Below, in pieces: positions 6,908 through 28,100 of a DNA stretch of 64,000 nt. Location of the stretch: the UHGV virus genome UHGV-0038498; one strand, 5' to 3'. A program made the position numbers and the translations under genes. The first letter of the stretch is position 1. Each line of letters begins with the position of its first letter. The notes under the pieces were generated by a model that had not been told where the DNA came from, ran no database searches, and was given only the letters and a program-made list of their open reading frames with translations. The DNA comes from a virus.

Positions 6908-9900
6908 TTACATAAGTTTAGATTCAAGTTCTTTTACACGAGAAGAAAGTGTTTTCACAGCTTCAACCAGAAGAGCAATCTGGGCTTGAGAAGAAACAGT
7001 GAGTATTTTATTACCCTTGCTATCTTCTGTTTCATGGACAGCTTCTGGTAAAACGTCTTGCAACGTTTGAGCTATAATACCCGCTTCGGTTTGAACAGGT
7101 TCACCGCCTATATATTCAGCTTTGTCATAGATTAAACCATCAAGTTGCTCAACCCTTTCGAGCGCATTTTTAATAGGTTTAAAATTAGATTTCAAGCGAA
7201 CATCAGAACGAATATAAACGTTAGGAGCATTGACGTTTTTCTCGGAATAAACTTCACTTGAGGTGAATCTAACAACTTTAACGTTGTTCGCCCACGCTTC
7301 TAAAAGCCCATCGCCTACTTGTCTAAAACCAGTATCGCTATCACCAATTGCAATGGAGTTACCACCCCAACCGTTGGAGGTATTTACACCAAATGCTCTC
7401 GCAGATCCGCATGATAGTATAGGAGCATAAAATGTTCCATCCATGTCAAAAGTCCAACGAGCCTGTTGCCCCGATGGGTTGTCGCCACGCATGCGAATAA
7501 TACCTTGACGCCAAGTACCAGAAACACCTAACCATCCAAATTCAAATGATTGACGATAGCCCGCGTCAGTTAAAAAACTGTATCCAGAAAATAGCGGGTA
7601 ATAAGCTTGACTTGTCTTGGAAATGCCACCCGTATTCGCTAAGAATGCAGAATTGTCGCGAGTCACATTTGAAATAGCAGAAAAGCTAACACTCCATTGT
7701 CCGGCAGCTTTAACTCGTGAATTAATGTTTCCATTAATAGTAATATCTTTATCAAAAGAAGTATTTTCGCCAAGACGAACAGTACCAGCAGTCATATCGA
7801 TTGAAAACGGTCGTTTTCCATTCCAATCGCCTTCAGTTGCTTTATTATCGCCGTCTGAAGAGTTTTTGTCAGTCAGTAAAATATAGAAGTTTCCACCGTC
7901 ATTTCGAAATAAAACGGAATTAGAACCTGATCTATCAGAATTACTTGTAATACGAATACCAGTTTGGTTATTAATAGCAATTTCTGACTCTGCTACATAA
8001 CGCTTAGGCCCGTTAGGCGTTTTTTGCAAGTTATTCAATATACTTGCAACTTGACCTTGAATTGCCGTCTCAGGAAGTTCAACTGCAGTTTCTGTGGCGC
8101 CGGATGAATCTGAAGCAAATATTTGATTAACATTAGCGTTCGGTGTGGCATAATATGAAACAGCCAACGCCTGGGCGTATGTACCTACATTCACATAGAT
8201 ATCATAAACATCGCCTGATGTATTAACAGTGGCAACGTTTTTAATACCTTGAGCAACATCCAACGACCAAACAACAGCATTAATGCCTTTAGGATTGTTG
8301 TTAGAAGTTCTTAAAACAATTTGCGAAATAACACACTGGTGAGGAGTGGAAACATTATACCCGTTCCCGCCTGAAATTTCAAATTTAATAGTTGAGGTTG
8401 ATTGCGGCATTGTCACCGTTGCTAATTTGTACCAACCGCCAGTACCTGAATAAGAAACCATTCGGGTATTGACTTTACGATCTAATGTCGAGTTCAAGTT
8501 AGCAAAGTTAGGTAATGAACCACCCGTGATATTACCATCAGTACCAATACGAACATTACCAGCACCTAATTTACCAGGAGAGTAAAAATCACCGTTTTTA
8601 TTAAATTCCCAACCTAAATCCTTTATAATCGCGCCAGTAGAACCGCCATCACCACCTTCATGATAATGAACTCTAAAATTACCACCGTTAATTAAAGTAC
8701 CAATAGAATAGCAACTATTATTTTGTACGTATCTCTGTTTAACAATTGGAACATACGTACTTGTATCTGTGCGATTAATATTCATATAGAACGGAGCACG
8801 AACGTTTTCATTATTTTGTGAAGCAAATGAACCAGCCCCCGCAGGTCTAACAGCATCAGTACATTCTACATCGATGTACGACGACTGACCTAACTGCATA
8901 CGGTAATTAGGAGAAATACGACTATGACTAGTAACAACAACAAGTTTATTATCGTTGTCTACAGTAATCATATTGCCGCCTCTGCCGTCATCGCCTAACG
9001 TGACAGAATGACGCATTTGTACCATACCATTATTAAGACTAATACTTAATGGGCGGAGATTACTTATTCCACCACTTTCACCAGCATCTTTAGGAGTCGG
9101 GATAATATGTAATGATGCTTCTGAACGACGGAAAATAGCACCATATTCAGCATTCCAAATTCTTAATGCATCTGCTGTTCCACCAAATTTAGCTTGTCCG
9201 TTTACAGATAATCCATTATTAACATTTAAAGAAGATTCAGTTGTAATAGAACCAGAAGCAACAATACTGCCTGAAGTTAATAAACCACCATTAACTCGAA
9301 ATTGAATAGGTCCGACAGTAGAACCTGATCCGGGAGCAACTCGCTGAGAATAAAAATGGTAACCTTGCCCATCTGATACTTCAAAAACTGTTTCACGGGA
9401 ACGATCGCCAGATGCGTTAAATGAATTACCCCACGCTTTAACAGTTACATAGCTTTTATTCTGCCCAGCACGAGTACCACCTTCCCACAAAATTTGCTTA
9501 GTGCCATCAACCGTAGTAGTTGGAGCGAATGTTAGCCCAGCAGTAGAATTATTAGCTGCTAAATATACACCATTATATATTGAAAGCTGCTTAGTGGATG
9601 TAATACCGCCATCAGCATAAAACATTACATTATTTGCACCGGTTACTATTTTAAGAATACCCGGGTTAACTTCCATGCCTTCTTGGGTATTAATATTAGT
9701 TTTGCCTTTACCACGGAAATAGTGGTTCATTTTTCCGCCTGAGTTATAGCCAATATGTGTCTGGCCGTCTCCAGCAGTGTTTTCATCAGCCTGTGTTTGA
9801 ACTGATAAAAATGCAACATTCGTTCCAGGCATAGTCCATGTTGTACCTTGATCTTCTGAGCGACCAAATATACCTTTACGAGTACTACGGAAACTATCAG

Positions 9901-21345: not shown

Positions 21346-22377
<1,032 letters not shown>

Positions 22378-22378
<1 letters not shown>

Positions 22379-23238
22379 TGAAACAATACCAATTTTTAAT
22401 TAAAGATATCCTGGAAAACGGTTATGAAACCGATGACCGAACAGGCACAGGAACAATTGCTTTGTTCGGTACTAAATTACGCTGGGATTTAACTAAAGGT
22501 TTTCCTGCAGTAACGACTAAGAAGCTCGCCTGGAAAGCTTGTATTGCTGAGCTAATATGGTTTTTATCGGGAAGCACGAATGTCAATGATTTACGATTAA
22601 TTCAACATGATTCATTAATTCAAGGTAAAACAGTTTGGGATGAAAATTACGAAAATCAAGCAAAAGATTTAGGATACCATAGCGGTGAACTTGGTCCAAT
22701 TTATGGAAAACAATGGCGCGATTTTGGTGGTGTAGACCAAATTATAGAAGTTGTTGATCGTATTAAAAAACTGCCAAATGATAGGCGTCAAATTGTTTCT
22801 GCATGGAATCCAGCTGAACTTAAATATATGGCATTACCGCCTTGTCATATGTTCTATCAATTTAACGTACGTAATGGCTATTTGGATTTGCAGTGGTATC
22901 AACGTTCGGTAGATGTTTTCCTCGGTCTTCCATTTAATATTGCATCATATGCTACGTTAGTTCATATTGTAGCTAAGATGTGTAATCTTATTCCAGGAGA
23001 TTTGATATTTTCTGGTGGTAATACTCATATCTATATGAATCACGTAGAACAATGTAAAGAACTTTTGCGTCGTGAACCTATGGATTTATGCGAATTACAA
23101 TTAAAATTTCCAGATGAATTTGATGAATGGGACACAGAATCACAGGTATTTTGGTTGAGTCAATTCGCAAAGCCACATAATTTTGTTCTTAACAACTACG
23201 TATCTCACCCGCCAATTAAAGGAAAGATGGCGGTGTAA
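22378..23238 (+). CDS. td: thymidylate synthase (uninterrupted, no intron)
   Basis: 286 aa from MKQYQFLIKDILENGYETDDRTGTGTIALFG..., active-site LPPCHMFYQF; continuous ORF across the position where T4 carries its group I intron. Confidence 0.92.
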
Positions 23239-23525: not shown

Positions 23526-23805
23526 ATATAAATCCGACTTTGATGTTAATATTCACCGCGGTACATTTTGGGGAAATTACGTCGGTAAAGATGCTGGCAG
23601 CCGGGAGGCTGCCATTGAATTATTCAAAAAAGATTTTATACGTCGAATTAAATCCGGAGAAATAACTAAAGCACATTTAGAGCCTTTACGTGGAATGAGG
23701 CTAGGATGCACATGTAAACCAAAGCCGTGTCATGGTGATATAATAGCTCATATAGTTAACCGATTGTTTAAAGACGATTTTCAAGTTGAGGACTTATGCA
23801 ATTAA
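23479..23805 (+). CDS. hypothetical protein with C-terminal Cys/His motif (DUF4326-like)
   Basis: 108-aa ORF ...[19 protein letters not shown]...; start uncertain (47-nt overlap with upstream ORF). Confidence 0.4.
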
Positions 23806-26060
23806 TTAATGTTATCAAAAGTAGTGGTGTTTCTCAGAGCTTTGACCCGCAAAAAATTATTAAAGTTTTATCTTGGGCAGCTGAAGGAACATCTGTAGAT
23901 CCTTATGAATTATATGAAAATATTAAATCATATCTCCGTGATGGAATGACAACTGATGACATTCAGACTATTGTCATTAAGGCTGCTGCGAATTCTATTT
24001 CAGTTGAAGAGCCTGATTATCAATACGTAGCTGCACGCTGTTTAATGTTTGCTCTTCGTAAGCATGTTTATGGGCAGTATGAACCACGTTCATTTATTGA
24101 CCATATTTCTTACTGTGTAAATGAAGGTAAATATGACCCTGAATTGTTGTCAAAATATTCTGCCGAAGAAATTACATTTTTAGAATCAAAAATTAAGCAC
24201 GAGCGGGATATGGAATTTACTTATTCCGGGGCGATGCAATTAAAAGAAAAATATCTAGTTAAAGATAAAACCACTGGTCAAATTTATGAAACTCCGCAGT
24301 TTGCATTTATGACTATTGGAATGGCATTACATCAAGATGAACCTGTTGATAGATTAAAACATGTTATTCGTTTTTATGAAGCAGTATCTACTCGACAGAT
24401 TTCATTACCAACTCCTATTATGGCTGGTTGCCGTACTCCAACTCGGCAGTTTAGTTCATGCGTTGTTATTGAAGCAGGTGATTCATTAAAGTCTATCAAT
24501 AAGGCTTCCGCTTCAATTGTTGAATATATCTCCAAACGCGCTGGAATTGGTATTAACGTTGGTATGATTCGTGCCGAAGGTTCTAAGATTGGCACAGGTG
24601 AAGTGCGTCATACTGGCGTTATTCCTTTTTGGAAACATTTTCAGACTGCTGTTAAATCATGTTCACAAGGCGGAATTCGTGGCGGCGCTGCTACTGCTTA
24701 TTATCCTATTTGGCATTTGGAAGTTGAAAATCTTCTCGTTTTGAAAAATAACAAAGGCGTAGAAGAAAACCGCATCCGTCATATGGATTACGGTGTTCAA
24801 CTGAATGACCTAATGATGGAACGATTCGGAAAGAATGATTACATTACTTTGTTCAGTCCGCATGAAATGGGTGGCGAACTTTATTATTCTTATTTTAAAG
24901 ACCAAGACCGTTTCCGTGAATTATACGAAGCCGCAGAAAAAGACCCTAATATTCGTAAAAAGCGTATTAAAGCCCGTGAACTGTTTGAATTGCTCATGAC
25001 TGAACGCTCAGGAACAGCAAGGATTTATGTGCAGTTCATTGATAATACGAATAACTATACGCCATTTATTCGTGAAAAGGCACCTATTCGTCAGAGTAAC
25101 TTGTGTTGTGAAATTGCTATTCCAACAAATGACGTGAATAGTCCTGATGCTGAAATTGGATTGTGTACGTTATCTGCATTTGTGTTAGATAACTTTGATT
25201 GGCAAGACCAAGATAAAATTAACGAATTGGCAGAAGTCCAAGTTCGTGCTCTTGATAATCTTTTGGATTACCAAGGATATCCAGTTCCAGAAGCTTTAAA
25301 AGCTAAAAAGCGTCGAAACCTCGGTGTTGGTGTGACGAACTATGCAGCTTGGCTGGCAAGTAATTTTGCTTCTTATGAAGATGCTAACGATTTAACACAC
25401 GAACTATTTGAGAGATTACAGTATGGACTCATTAAAGCATCCATTAAGCTCGCCAAAGAAAAAGGACCTTGCGAATATTATTCAGACACTCGTTGGTCTC
25501 GAGGCGAATTACCTATCGACTGGTACAATAAAAAGATTGACCAAATCGCAGCTCCAAAATACGTTTGTGACTGGTCGTCGCTGCGGGAAGACCTTAAGCT
25601 CTTTGGCATCCGTAATAGCACATTATCAGCACTTATGCCATGTGAGTCATCTTCCCAAGTTTCTAACAGTACAAACGGTATCGAGCCTCCACGTGGACCA
25701 GTCTCTGTTAAAGAATCAAAAGAGGGTTCCTTTAATCAAGTCGTGCCCAATATTGAGCATAACATAGACCTCTATGATTATACGTGGAAATTAGCTAAGA
25801 AAGGTAATAAACCTTATCTTACGCAAGTAGCTATTATGTTGAAATGGGTATGTCAATCAGCTTCAGCGAATACATATTATGACCCGCAGATTTTTCCAAA
25901 AGGAAAGGTTCCAATGTCAATAATGATTGATGACCTTTTGTATTTTTGGTATTTTGGCGGAAAAAATTTCTATTATCATAATACACGTGACGGTTCTGGT
26001 ACTGATGATTATGAAATAGAAACTCCAAAAGCTGAAGATTGTTCATCCTGTAAATTATGA
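23796..26060 (+). CDS. nrdA: ribonucleoside-diphosphate reductase large subunit
   Basis: 754-aa [34 protein letters not shown]... matching T4 NrdA. Confidence 0.95.
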   Translation: MQLINVIKSSGVSQSFDPQKIIKVLSWAAEGTSVDPYELYENIKSYLRDGMTTDDIQTIVIKAAANSISVEEPDYQYVAARCLMFALRKHVYGQYEPRSFIDHISYCVNEGKYDPELLSKYSAEEITFLESKIKHERDMEFTYSGAMQLKEKYLVKDKTTGQIYETPQFAFMTIGMALHQDEPVDRLKHVIRFYEAVSTRQISLPTPIMAGCRTPTRQFSSCVVIEAGDSLKSINKASASIVEYISKRAGIGINVGMIRAEGSKIGTGEVRHTGVIPFWKHFQTAVKSCSQGGIRGGAATAYYPIWHLEVENLLVLKNNKGVEENRIRHMDYGVQLNDLMMERFGKNDYITLFSPHEMGGELYYSYFKDQDRFRELYEAAEKDPNIRKKRIKARELFELLMTERSGTARIYVQFIDNTNNYTPFIREKAPIRQSNLCCEIAIPTNDVNSPDAEIGLCTLSAFVLDNFDWQDQDKINELAEVQVRALDNLLDYQGYPVPEALKAKKRRNLGVGVTNYAAWLASNFASYEDANDLTHELFERLQYGLIKASIKLAKEKGPCEYYSDTRWSRGELPIDWYNKKIDQIAAPKYVCDWSSLREDLKLFGIRNSTLSALMPCESSSQVSNSTNGIEPPRGPVSVKESKEGSFNQVVPNIEHNIDLYDYTWKLAKKGNKPYLTQVAIMLKWVCQSASANTYYDPQIFPKGKVPMSIMIDDLLYFWYFGGKNFYYHNTRDGSGTDDYEIETPKAEDCSSCKL

Positions 26061-26103
26061 TATAATTTGACTCACGGACGAGTCACCAACAACGAGAAAT
26101 AAT

Positions 26104-26895
26104 ATGAAAGACCTACCTGCCATAACATATCCAGGTGCAAAACATAAGTATATGCCATTTATTAGACAATTTTCAAACCGCTTTGACGATAAGCCTGTTT
26201 TGGATGCTTTTTGTGGTGGTCTTGGATTTTCTATGAATTGTCAGAGAGATGTTATATGTAATGATATTAATACTCCTCTTATAGATATGTATAACAAGAT
26301 GAAATTATCTTCAATTAATGATATAGTTCAAATTATTGAAGACTTTAATTTGAATGACAAAGATTCAGCACCTTTTTATAATCTGTCAAAAGAATACGAT
26401 AAAACCAAAAACGGATTATATCTTTATGTTTTACATTTATTTTCATTCAGTTCGTTAATCCGATTTTCTAGTAATGGAAATTATAACGCGGCTTTCGCCA
26501 ATAGAGCCAAGTATTCCAGAACTTCTTTTAACAAGTCTCAACAGGATAAATTTTCTGAATTTAAAAATAGACAGCACCGATTTACATTTAGTAATAAATC
26601 ATTCAGAGATTTGGATTTTGAAAACAAAAATTTATTCATTGACCCACCATATCTTTCTACTAAATTTAAATATTCAGGCTGGGAAGAAAAGGATGAATTA
26701 GAATTATTAGACAAAATTAAACAATCAAAGTCTAAATTTATTATCACTAATAATCTATCAGACGATATTAACAATTATATTTTAAAAGATTGGGCACTTT
26801 CTAATAATTTCAAAATTGAATATTTTGAAACCATGTATAGGAAGCAAAAGAAAGGTGCATCATTTCAGACTGAAGTGCTTATACACAATATGTGA
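26104..26895 (+). CDS. DNA N6-adenine methyltransferase, Dam family (diverged T4-Dam-like)
   Basis: 263-aa ORF with YPGAKHK, LDAFCGGLGFSMN (SAM-binding FxGxG) and FIDPPY (catalytic DPPY); collinear with T4 Dam as recalled; AT-rich with many AGA Arg codons. Confidence 0.8.
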   Translation: MKDLPAITYPGAKHKYMPFIRQFSNRFDDKPVLDAFCGGLGFSMNCQRDVICNDINTPLIDMYNKMKLSSINDIVQIIEDFNLNDKDSAPFYNLSKEYDKTKNGLYLYVLHLFSFSSLIRFSSNGNYNAAFANRAKYSRTSFNKSQQDKFSEFKNRQHRFTFSNKSFRDLDFENKNLFIDPPYLSTKFKYSGWEEKDELELLDKIKQSKSKFIITNNLSDDINNYILKDWALSNNFKIEYFETMYRKQKKGASFQTEVLIHNM

Positions 26896-26930
26896 TTAAA
26901 TAATTTAAATCTATAATAAGCGAGAATAAT

Positions 26931-28100
26931 ATGTCTACAGTTTTTAATACAAATCCAGTTGATGTTTTAAAAGAACCTATGTTCTTCGGTTCAGGTCTTG
27001 GTATTGCGCGTTATGATATTCAACGCCATAAAGTTTTTGAAGATTTAACCGAAAAGCAATTATCATTTTTCTGGCGTCCTGAAGAAGTAAACTTAATGAT
27101 GGATGCTGCGCAATTTAACAAGCTTCCTCAGTATCAGCAAGATATTTTTACTAATAACTTGAAGTATCAATCACTTCTAGATAGCATTCAGGGTCGTGCA
27201 CCGTCTGCTGTACTTATGTCGTTAATTTCAGACCCAAGTCTTGATACATGGGTTGCTACATGGACTTTTAGTGAAACTATTCACAGCCGTTCATATACTC
27301 ATATCATGCGAAATCTTTATACTGATCCGTCAAAGGTATTTGATGAGATTGTATTAGATAAAGCTATTATGAAACGTGCCGAGTCCATTGGTCGCTATTA
27401 CGATGATGTTCTAGTTAAGACTCGTGAATACCAAAACGCGGTTGAAGATTATGAAGGAATTTTATCAGAAGGATTTCGTAAAGACGAATTAGGCAAAGTT
27501 GTTGAATGTACTAAACGAGCACTAATGAAATCTCTTTATCTTTGCCTTCATGTAATCAACGCGTTGGAAGCTATTCGTTTTTATGTATCTTTCGCATGTA
27601 CCTTTAACTTCCATAAGAACATGGAAATCATGGAAGGTAATGCCAAGATTATGAAGTTCATTGCACGTGATGAGCAGCTTCACCTTAAAGGCACTCAATA
27701 TATTATTCGTCAACTTCAACTTGGCACTGATGGCGATGAATGGGTTAAAATTGCTCAAGAGTGTGAACAAGAAGCAGTTGATATTTTCATGGAAGTTAAC
27801 CGTCAAGAAAAAGACTGGGCAGTTCATTTATTTAAAGATGGCGATGTTCCTGGATTAAATACAAATAGCATGTGGAGCTTTATTGATTACTTAACTGTAT
27901 CTCGTATGAAACAGTGCGGTCTTCCATGCCCAATTACTGATGCTCCGGTTAAACATCCGTATCCTTGGATTCGTGAATATCTTAATTCTGATAATGTTCA
28001 ATCCGCGCCACAAGAAGTAGAACTGTCATCTTACCTTGTAGCACAGATTGATAATGATGTTGATGATAAAGTTATGATGGGTTTTAAAAAATATTTTTAA
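26931..28100 (+). CDS. nrdB: ribonucleoside-diphosphate reductase small subunit (uninterrupted, no intron)
   Basis: 389-aa continuous ORF MSTVFNTNPVDVLKEPMFFGSGLGIARYDIQRHK... matching T4 NrdB. Confidence 0.93.
   Translation: MSTVFNTNPVDVLKEPMFFGSGLGIARYDIQRHKVFEDLTEKQLSFFWRPEEVNLMMDAAQFNKLPQYQQDIFTNNLKYQSLLDSIQGRAPSAVLMSLISDPSLDTWVATWTFSETIHSRSYTHIMRNLYTDPSKVFDEIVLDKAIMKRAESIGRYYDDVLVKTREYQNAVEDYEGILSEGFRKDELGKVVECTKRALMKSLYLCLHVINALEAIRFYVSFACTFNFHKNMEIMEGNAKIMKFIARDEQLHLKGTQYIIRQLQLGTDGDEWVKIAQECEQEAVDIFMEVNRQEKDWAVHLFKDGDVPGLNTNSMWSFIDYLTVSRMKQCGLPCPITDAPVKHPYPWIREYLNSDNVQSAPQEVELSSYLVAQIDNDVDDKVMMGFKKYF

Follow-up and report, generated by a model that had tools for sequence, protein, structure and literature searches.

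A predicted solitary Dam-family adenine methyltransferase gene on an exchanged cassette between nrdA and nrdB in T4-like phages

DNA adenine methyltransferases of the D12 class are represented among solved structures by phage T4 Dam (T4Dam, or M.EcoT4Dam; PDB 1YFJ, 1YFL, and 1Q0S), Escherichia coli Dam (EcoDam; PDB 2G1P), and DpnM (PDB 2DPM). On the T4 map, dam is flanked by the dCTPase gene (56) and the primase gene (61), and the spacer between nrdA and nrdB contains mobE and nrdB.1 (PMC2988022). In T4-related phages, this slot between the same conserved genes is occupied in a patchy manner by the homing endonuclease genes mobE and hef, and it was reported that such spacer genes rely on transcription from upstream of nrdA (PMC2988022). 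A further group that is relevant here is that of the phage orphan methyltransferases ("moron"-like genes), which are single AT-rich genes without a cognate restriction gene, patchy among relatives, and presumed to serve restriction evasion. Orphan methylases typically have evident relatives in bacteria or prophages. The present analysis concerns a methylase gene in a stretch of 64,000 nucleotides of UHGV virus genome UHGV-0038498 (the window, i.e., the whole stretch that was analysed). This open reading frame (ORF), at 26104..26895 on the plus strand (263 codons, with the stop codon included in the coordinates), lies between nrdA and nrdB. An earlier reading made from the DNA letters without database searches (the sequence-only reading) had stated that T4 holds mobE in this spacer and dam elsewhere, which the T4 map confirms. 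The enzyme type is ordinary, and its place is unusual.

The ORF is predicted, on the basis of alignments and a structural model, to encode an intact D12-class (alpha group) N6-adenine DNA methyltransferase of 263 amino acids (aa) with a T4Dam-like fold. All four D12 signatures that the sequence-only reading had quoted are present in the translation, namely YPGAKHK (aa 9-15), LDAFCGGLGFSMN (aa 33-45), CNDINTPLIDMY (aa 52-63), and FIDPPY (aa 178-183), and the protein matches Pfam PF02086 (D12 class) over profile positions 1-251 of 253 with E=1.8e-23 and 84 bits (gathering cut-off 22). The PHROGs label for the ORF is "DNA methyltransferase", and the GenBank entries of its relatives already use "DNA adenine methylase" or "putative methylase" for the gene. 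The same reading had described the product as collinear with T4 Dam but clearly diverged, and the two proteins do align end to end at 33% identity (E=3e-37). The nearest solved structure by sequence is T4Dam (phmmer, E=2e-36), followed by EcoDam (3e-6) and DpnM (3e-5); the latter two have the class, the fold, and the DPPY and FxGxG motifs in common with the ORF and differ from it in their low identity of ~21%. When the AlphaFold model of the product (predicted local distance difference test score, pLDDT, 87.3; predicted template modelling score, pTM, 0.86) was compared by Foldseek, the nine best matches were all T4Dam chains (template modelling score, TM, 0.79-0.88), after which came EcoDam (0.71-0.75) and DpnM (0.72). 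The D12/alpha fold and motif order are common to the ORF and T4Dam, which are also alike in size (263 vs. 259 aa), in AT-richness, and in being solitary phage methylases without a partner nuclease.

The motifs follow the order that is usual in the D12 class: FCGGLG (aa 36-41), the DNA-recognition hairpin (aa 115-134), and DPPY (aa 180-183). The first of these is the AdoMet (S-adenosylmethionine)-binding motif I, FxGxG, with its codons at 26209..26226 (+), and the last is the catalytic motif IV at 26641..26652 (+), both placed by alignment. Together with the N-terminal G-x-K they are intact, and their columns are invariant or nearly so in 150 distant homologues: the D of DPPY is found in 150/150, and PPY in at least 142. 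F36 and G38 show no variation across T4Dam, EcoDam, and the ORF clade. Comparison of the alleles described below indicates that the protein is under purifying selection, since dN/dS between them is 0.06-0.17 and the copies are full length throughout (9/9 examined, without frameshifts). The intact catalytic and cofactor motifs, the nine undamaged copies, the strength of this selection, and the confident full-length methyltransferase fold of the model all speak against an inactive remnant, or a methylase-like protein with another use such as DNA binding. Such an explanation would accord with an activity that is predicted only and with T4 dam being, as we assume, non-essential, and is considered extremely improbable.

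Taken together, the locus is best read as a functional solitary Dam-family methylase on an exchanged nrdA-nrdB cassette, with a GATC-like target and early expression, to which we would assign a probability of about 0.75. Briefly, the ORF would yield a functional orphan Dam-family N6-adenine methyltransferase of the T4Dam structural type, encoded on a cassette of ~0.8-0.9 kb that is lodged in the slot of mobE in T4 and has its own ribosome-binding site, without a convincing promoter or terminator. The methylase would be co-transcribed with the prereplicative frd-td-nrdA-nrdB genes and thus be made early, when DNA modification is useful. It would flip and methylate the adenine of GATC, or of a close variant, in replicating phage DNA, and the methylation would further shield the remaining target sites from host nucleases whose substrates are unmethylated sites. 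In the nearest carriers, where it appears to be the sole Dam-family gene, it would add Dam-type methylation that is otherwise missing. The exchange of the cassette across several T4-like genera would have taken place in mixed infection by homologous recombination, through the final nrdA codons on one side and the initial nrdB codons on the other, and double-strand breaks made by homing endonucleases of the neighborhood may, speculatively, have helped this spread.

The extent of the cassette was derived from the empty site of Shigella phage Shfl2, with both junctions aligned. An insert of ~0.82 kb (26087..26909, both ends approximate), which is missing from the Shfl2 spacer, consists of the ORF together with a leader of 17 nt, in which there is a GAG Shine-Dalgarno element, and a trailer of 14 nt. 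Neither a target duplication nor terminal inverted repeats were found at the junctions, and the cassette has no second ORF. It stands in a T4-like (Tequatrovirus) genome with the plus-strand gene order frd, td, nrdA, methylase ORF, nrdB, denA, rnlA. The flanking genes nrdA (23796..26060, +) and nrdB (26931..28100, +) would serve as the left and right recombination arms, and nrdA is also the side from which transcripts are likely to enter the cassette. Both td (22366-23238) and nrdB are uninterrupted here, without group I introns, unlike those of T4.

The sequence-only reading had left room for this arrangement being standard in close relatives. The gene is in fact present in 8 of the 826 T4-like phage records that match the nrdA-nrdB region, most of which have an nrdA-nrdB gap of ~50 bp; further carriers are one Klebsiella phage and three metagenome contigs. 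Close relatives (at least 75% identity) are limited to nine phage records and four protein clusters among the 50,697 phage records, 5.8 billion protein clusters at 90% identity, and 1.84 billion representatives at 50% that were searched. Below this group there is a gap down to 40% (Alcaligenes phage Dam), followed by matches of 33-38%, and no relative was detected in the IMG/VR viral contigs, which were scanned with the protein and with the clade alignment. Every close relative with readable surroundings directly follows nrdA, and precedes nrdB wherever the DNA continues. The locus has been found in Tequatrovirus, Gelderlandvirus (CF-SP2), Marfavirus (PhiKpNIH-6), two unclassified phages, and three metagenome contigs. 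The phage record closest to the window in the phage collection (97.6% identical) is without the cassette, and denA downstream of nrdB occurs both with and without it.

With regard to mobility, Pfam finds the D12 domain only, and no nuclease, transposase, or integrase domain in the cassette. A transposon-like element is ruled out, as there are neither repeats nor a mobility gene, and the locus does not qualify as a homing endonuclease gene, a self-mobile element, or a type II restriction-modification pair. No cognate restriction endonuclease gene lies beside the methylase, whose neighbors in the carriers are nrdA and nrdB. While mobE and hef encode nucleases, the cassette does not and therefore cannot home by itself, so its spread must depend on general recombination, on selection, or on breaks that other elements introduce. 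The traits listed above for phage orphan methyltransferases are all shared by the cassette; it differs from them in having one insertion site across genera and no relatives above 40% identity elsewhere.

Three alleles of the methylase gene, with 72-80% nucleotide identity to one another, were distinguished. Allele A occurs in the window, ECO07P2, T4_ev240, NR1, 236Ecol005PP, and EP02SG, allele B in BGP, contig L012, fDHCT2, and CF-SP2, and allele C in L010, L011, and PhiKpNIH-6. The sequences show that the cassette has been exchanged horizontally among T4-like phages, because the nrd flanks disagree with it in three cases. First, EP02SG and the window are 97.6% identical in the methylase gene and only 78.3% in nrdA and 80.2% in nrdB. 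Second, the methylase gene of BGP is 91.5% identical to that of Gelderlandvirus CF-SP2, whereas their nrdA genes are at 79.4%, and nrdA of BGP matches the window gene at 95.8%. Third, L010 and L011 have 100% identical methylase genes and nrdA genes at 93.6%. A mismatch map delimits the tract common to the window and EP02SG to 26028..26947, i.e., from the last 11 codons of nrdA through the spacer and the methylase gene to codon 6 of nrdB, and identity matrices and sliding identity also mark this segment (~97.6%) as the exchanged unit. Because the exchanged tract reaches into nrdB, serine codon 2 of that gene reads TCT in the carriers, compared with AGC in the empty site.

Within Tequatrovirus, dS is 0.014 in the cassette and 0.142 in the adjoining nrdA, which means that allele A entered these backgrounds recently, after their divergence. 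Near-identical Tequatrovirus backgrounds bear allele A, allele B, or no cassette. These data bear on the possibility that the gene is an ancient vertical resident of the spacer that was lost independently in most T4-like lineages. Such a history would be in line with the location of all members at one locus, and also with the comparison between genera, in which the methylase has diverged to about the extent of nrdA and nrdB (window vs. fDHCT2, CF-SP2, and L010: 72-78% vs. 70-81% nucleotide identity, with dS of similar order). The three incongruences between cassette and flanks, the breakpoints, which are sharp and no more than 35 nt from the ends of the flanking genes, the mixed allele content of near-identical backgrounds, and the third-position GC of a Marfavirus-type contig (given below) make it unlikely, and for recent history vertical-only inheritance is contradicted by the sequence comparisons. 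As no mobility function is present, we infer that the exchange proceeds via ordinary homologous recombination in mixed infections. It is speculative whether homing endonucleases cutting in the neighborhood aid it; mobE and I-TevIII target nrdB (PMC2988022), and further endonucleases are encoded nearby, by the nrdB intron of BGP and by a gene that splits nrdA in 236Ecol005PP.

The sequence-only reading had taken the composition of the gene to suggest recent acquisition. The underlying observations are real: the ORF has a GC content of 28.4% (z = -2.0), with only one of the 74 window genes lower, and 7 of its 10 Arg codons are AGA or AGG, compared with 24% window-wide (Fisher p = 0.003). On the other hand, AT-richness and AGA use do not show recent import, because third-position GC is normal (23.6% vs. 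a mean of 25.0%, z = -0.34) and T4 dam is alike, with a GC of 27.7% and AGR (AGA or AGG) in 4/7 Arg codons; in mobE the count is 7/11. GC at codon positions 1 and 2 is 0.33 and 0.28 in the ORF and 0.49 and 0.37 in nrdA, and the low GC reflects a protein rich in Asn, Lys, Phe, and Ser. The composition is typical of weakly expressed T4 accessory genes beside the codon-biased nrd genes. Third-position GC sets the cassette apart only in the Marfavirus-type contig, a background of higher GC (0.20 vs. 0.36-0.38 in the flanks), which is consistent with import from a T4-like phage of greater AT content.

No outside donor was found either, as nothing above 40% identity outside T4-like phages came from the cluster representatives or phage records searched. 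Recent capture from a bacterial host or an unrelated phage is very unlikely on this ground, and also because third-position GC is typical of the window, T4 dam has a similar composition, T4Dam is the nearest solved relative by a wide margin, and the alleles are 20-28% apart in nucleotides, which points to long residence in T4-like phages. It could be argued for from the low GC, the AGA-rich Arg codons, and the fact that the nearest relative beyond the T4-like phages, the Alcaligenes phage Dam, reaches 40% identity. What does stand of the earlier idea, on other evidence, is a recent spread within Tequatrovirus, the cassette being far more alike than its flanks between carriers.

The relation of the gene to T4 dam can be stated plainly: it is not an orthologue, as it lies at another locus (nrdA-nrdB instead of 56-61) and shares only 33% identity with T4 Dam. 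Since both coexist in BGP, T4 dam and the ORF are not alleles of one gene. BGP has a canonical dam at the usual locus in addition to the nrdA-nrdB methylase, and is the sole carrier found with two Dam-family genes. Canonical Dam proteins at least 90% identical to T4 Dam occur in 182 phage records (those of Tequatrovirus are 95-100% alike), and most T4-like coliphages are without canonical dam by this measure. Nothing besides the ORF was found in the 64-kb window with T4 Dam as query, as is expected for a window that stops short of the 56-61 region. The closest carrier, ECO07P2 (99% identity over 2 kb), has ~40 bp at the dam locus in place of the ~920 bp, including dam, of T4. With the ORF as query and a threshold sensitive to T4-type Dam, tblastn gave one place in each carrier other than BGP and PhiKpNIH-6; the latter has two, of which the second was left out of the comparison. 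It is probable from these relatives that the ORF is the sole Dam-family gene of the window's phage, which agrees with one half of an alternative raised in the sequence-only reading, namely that the protein might simply be the phage's only Dam orthologue; the orthology half does not hold.

A link between carriage of the cassette and absence of canonical dam was also considered and is not significant, canonical dam being present in only ~182 of ~800 comparable records; the test covers nine carrier records, of which only BGP is shown to have canonical dam, with the second place in PhiKpNIH-6 not followed. At the dam site of ECO07P2 (record L007, 7207-7459), the ~40 bp are unrelated sequence, and a short ORF is annotated on the other strand (7259-7459), an arrangement that represents clean absence and not a decayed gene. 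In BGP (record L009, 3404-4743), a 561-nt gene directly precedes the canonical dam; it has been termed restriction-enzyme-like and reported only from BGP, Geo, and EL (PMC13390438). In the passages found of the Durham-collection paper that covers NR1 and BGP, only the canonical Dam-like gene of BGP is discussed, and cytosine modifications only, with no adenine methylation data, are given.

The molecular basis of GATC reading has been described for EcoDam. In its beta-hairpin, Y119 intercalates, N120 hydrogen-bonds, L122 and P134 touch the inner pairs, and R124 reads a G of GATC, while K9 and Y138 handle the first pair (PMC4417163). The codons for the corresponding hairpin of the ORF (aa 115-134) are at 26446..26505 (+), as placed by alignments, by these EcoDam roles, and by the AlphaFold model. 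ORF residues F115/S116 match the intercalating pair F111/S112 of T4Dam, L118 matches T4Dam M114 and EcoDam L122, R120 matches T4Dam R116 and EcoDam R124, F131 matches T4Dam F127, and R134 matches T4Dam R130. At the position of T4Dam P126 and EcoDam P134, the ORF has A130, with Ser in allele B and Ala in allele C. Both equivalents of the Arg residues for the outer G:C pairs (R120 and R134) are thus kept, and the inner-pair Pro is not. A 6-aa insertion, which T4Dam lacks, follows R134, and within the hairpin the model is of low confidence only there (pLDDT 62). We take T4Dam R130 to be the reader of the first G, and the ORF probably reads the first base pair by the equivalent Arg instead of the EcoDam K9/Y138 arrangement; roles at the first base pair were reportedly treated by Elsawy et al. 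in 2009. Judged from these residues, the target is most likely GATC-centred.

It is also possible, as the sequence-only reading had allowed and although we hold this only tentatively, that the same fold and cassette go with a specificity that is relaxed or different, i.e., one that is Dam-h-like (GATC plus GAY-type sites) or directed to another short site. A non-strict target would widen the anti-restriction cover and would explain why BGP keeps the gene beside its canonical dam. The loss of the proline that contacts the inner pair in EcoDam (PMC4417163) would be consistent with such a target, as would the Lys that replaces R116 in allele B, the insertion after the hairpin, the low scores of the family against the curated Dam model (given below), and the coexistence with canonical dam in BGP. 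Strict GATC reading, on the other hand, is favored by the outer-pair Arg residues, the intercalating F-S pair, and F127, which are all kept in the window allele, and by the three solved D12 enzymes nearest in fold, all of which are GATC enzymes. The missing proline is itself not diagnostic, since 58 of the 150 distant homologues have S, A, or T in this column (P 79, S 26, A 17, T 15); as a specificity predictor the column frequencies gave no answer. The hypermethylating, specificity-relaxing dam-h mutation of T4, studied by Miner, Schlagman and Hattman in 1989 (NAR 17:8149), is reportedly P126S.

As a separate observation, GATC occurs at 70 sites in the window (1-64000) where ~214 are expected from a second-order Markov model. 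The ratio of 0.33 is the lowest among the sixteen 4-bp palindromes (CTAG 0.69, CATG 0.70). Only two of the sites are in nrdA-nrdB, and the methylase gene has none.

Several points weigh against the reading of the locus as a functional solitary methylase with a GATC-like target. The family falls short of the cut-off of the NCBIfam model for Dam (TIGR00571, 114.85 bits), scoring 92.4 bits for the window ORF, 70.2 for allele B, and 87.4 for allele C, whereas T4 Dam passes with 239.5. The Ala or Ser at the P126 position, and the Lys of allele B, suggest that the target may not be plain GATC. It is odd that BGP retains its canonical dam as well, if both enzymes share one job. Methylase activity and target are predicted from homology and a structural model, and the status as only Dam-family gene is extrapolated from relatives, the rest of the phage genome lying outside the window. 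Any gain from methylation is unproven where the cytosines of the phage are already hypermodified, and T4 dam is presumably dispensable.

With regard to expression, the sequence-only reading had placed a TATAAT and a hairpin in front of the gene. Both are present, at 26061..26066 (+), directly after the nrdA stop codon, and at 26068..26085 (+; TGACTC-ACGGAC-GAGTCA, with a 6-bp stem and a 6-nt loop), respectively; they are not signals of the gene itself, as they lie outside the insert and also occur in the Shfl2 empty site, i.e., in the ancestral spacer, as well as in all allele A and B carriers examined. The TATAAT has no acceptable -35 partner and, being used by none of the sigma-70 matches, was rejected as a demonstrated promoter; the sigma-70 scan as a whole is at chance level (28 matches vs. 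22.7 +/- 5 expected). The hairpin is missing from T4 and from Marfavirus-type loci and belongs to no Rfam family. Its pattern is within chance (at least one match in 13/100 shuffles), and the local fold is no stabler than that of shuffled sequences (z = -0.48). As an intrinsic terminator it was ruled out, as it has no U tract downstream and is missing from the output of the terminator scan, which detected no terminator-like site between 24700 and 28600.

The methylase gene begins 43 nt after nrdA and ends 35 nt before nrdB, all on one strand. A GAGAAA at 26094..26099 (+), which ends 4 nt before the ATG and resembles the nrdB start region of the carriers (GCGAGAATAATATG), is the likely Shine-Dalgarno element. 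The gene is probably transcribed with the prereplicative nrdA/nrdB genes and translated from its own start region. Inside the ORF, at 26354-26382, there is an 11/12 match to the sigma-70 consensus (ATGACA-17 nt-TATAAT) that faces nrdB; it was not accepted as functional, being kept in allele A (window and EP02SG) and not in alleles B and C.

What is new here is modest: an isolated clade confined to one locus, three alleles exchanged across genera, and a hairpin without the conserved proline. The locus provides a natural example of a non-nuclease cargo gene that occupies, and moves through, a homing-endonuclease slot, with three alleles and mapped breakpoints, and its product belongs to a small isolated Dam-family branch whose hairpin is unlike that of the solved GATC enzymes at the P126-aligned position. 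A relaxed or new target would give insight into DNA reading by Dam-type hairpins and would add one more phage counter-defence to weigh in choosing therapeutic T4-like phages, whereas a plain GATC methylase would be a minor annotation point. It is doubtful, but would be of interest, that the clade is a natural Dam-h counterpart lacking the hairpin proline, giving broad restriction protection through GATC and related non-canonical sites, and that its gene at the same time rides on the repair of breaks made by the nrdA/nrdB homing endonucleases. In that case, the cassette would compete with mobE and hef for the slot.

Two further observations concern the flanking genes. In 236Ecol005PP (record L017, 393-3561), nrdA consists of two ORFs split by a "putative mobile endonuclease" gene (1872-2582), with the methylase cassette directly after; the split resembles the arrangement described for mobE in Aeromonas phage Aeh1. 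In nrdB, a patch at 27350-27500 is only 63-72% identical to the window in T4_ev240, NR1, BGP, L012, and EP02SG, while the surrounding nrdB is mostly 84-100% identical in Tequatrovirus backgrounds and divergent throughout in EP02SG. The gene also varies in length by 3 codons at this place (389 vs. 392 aa), and the patch lies 110-260 bp upstream of the position of the BGP nrdB intron, which carries an endonuclease gene; it may represent a co-conversion or nuclease-resistance patch.

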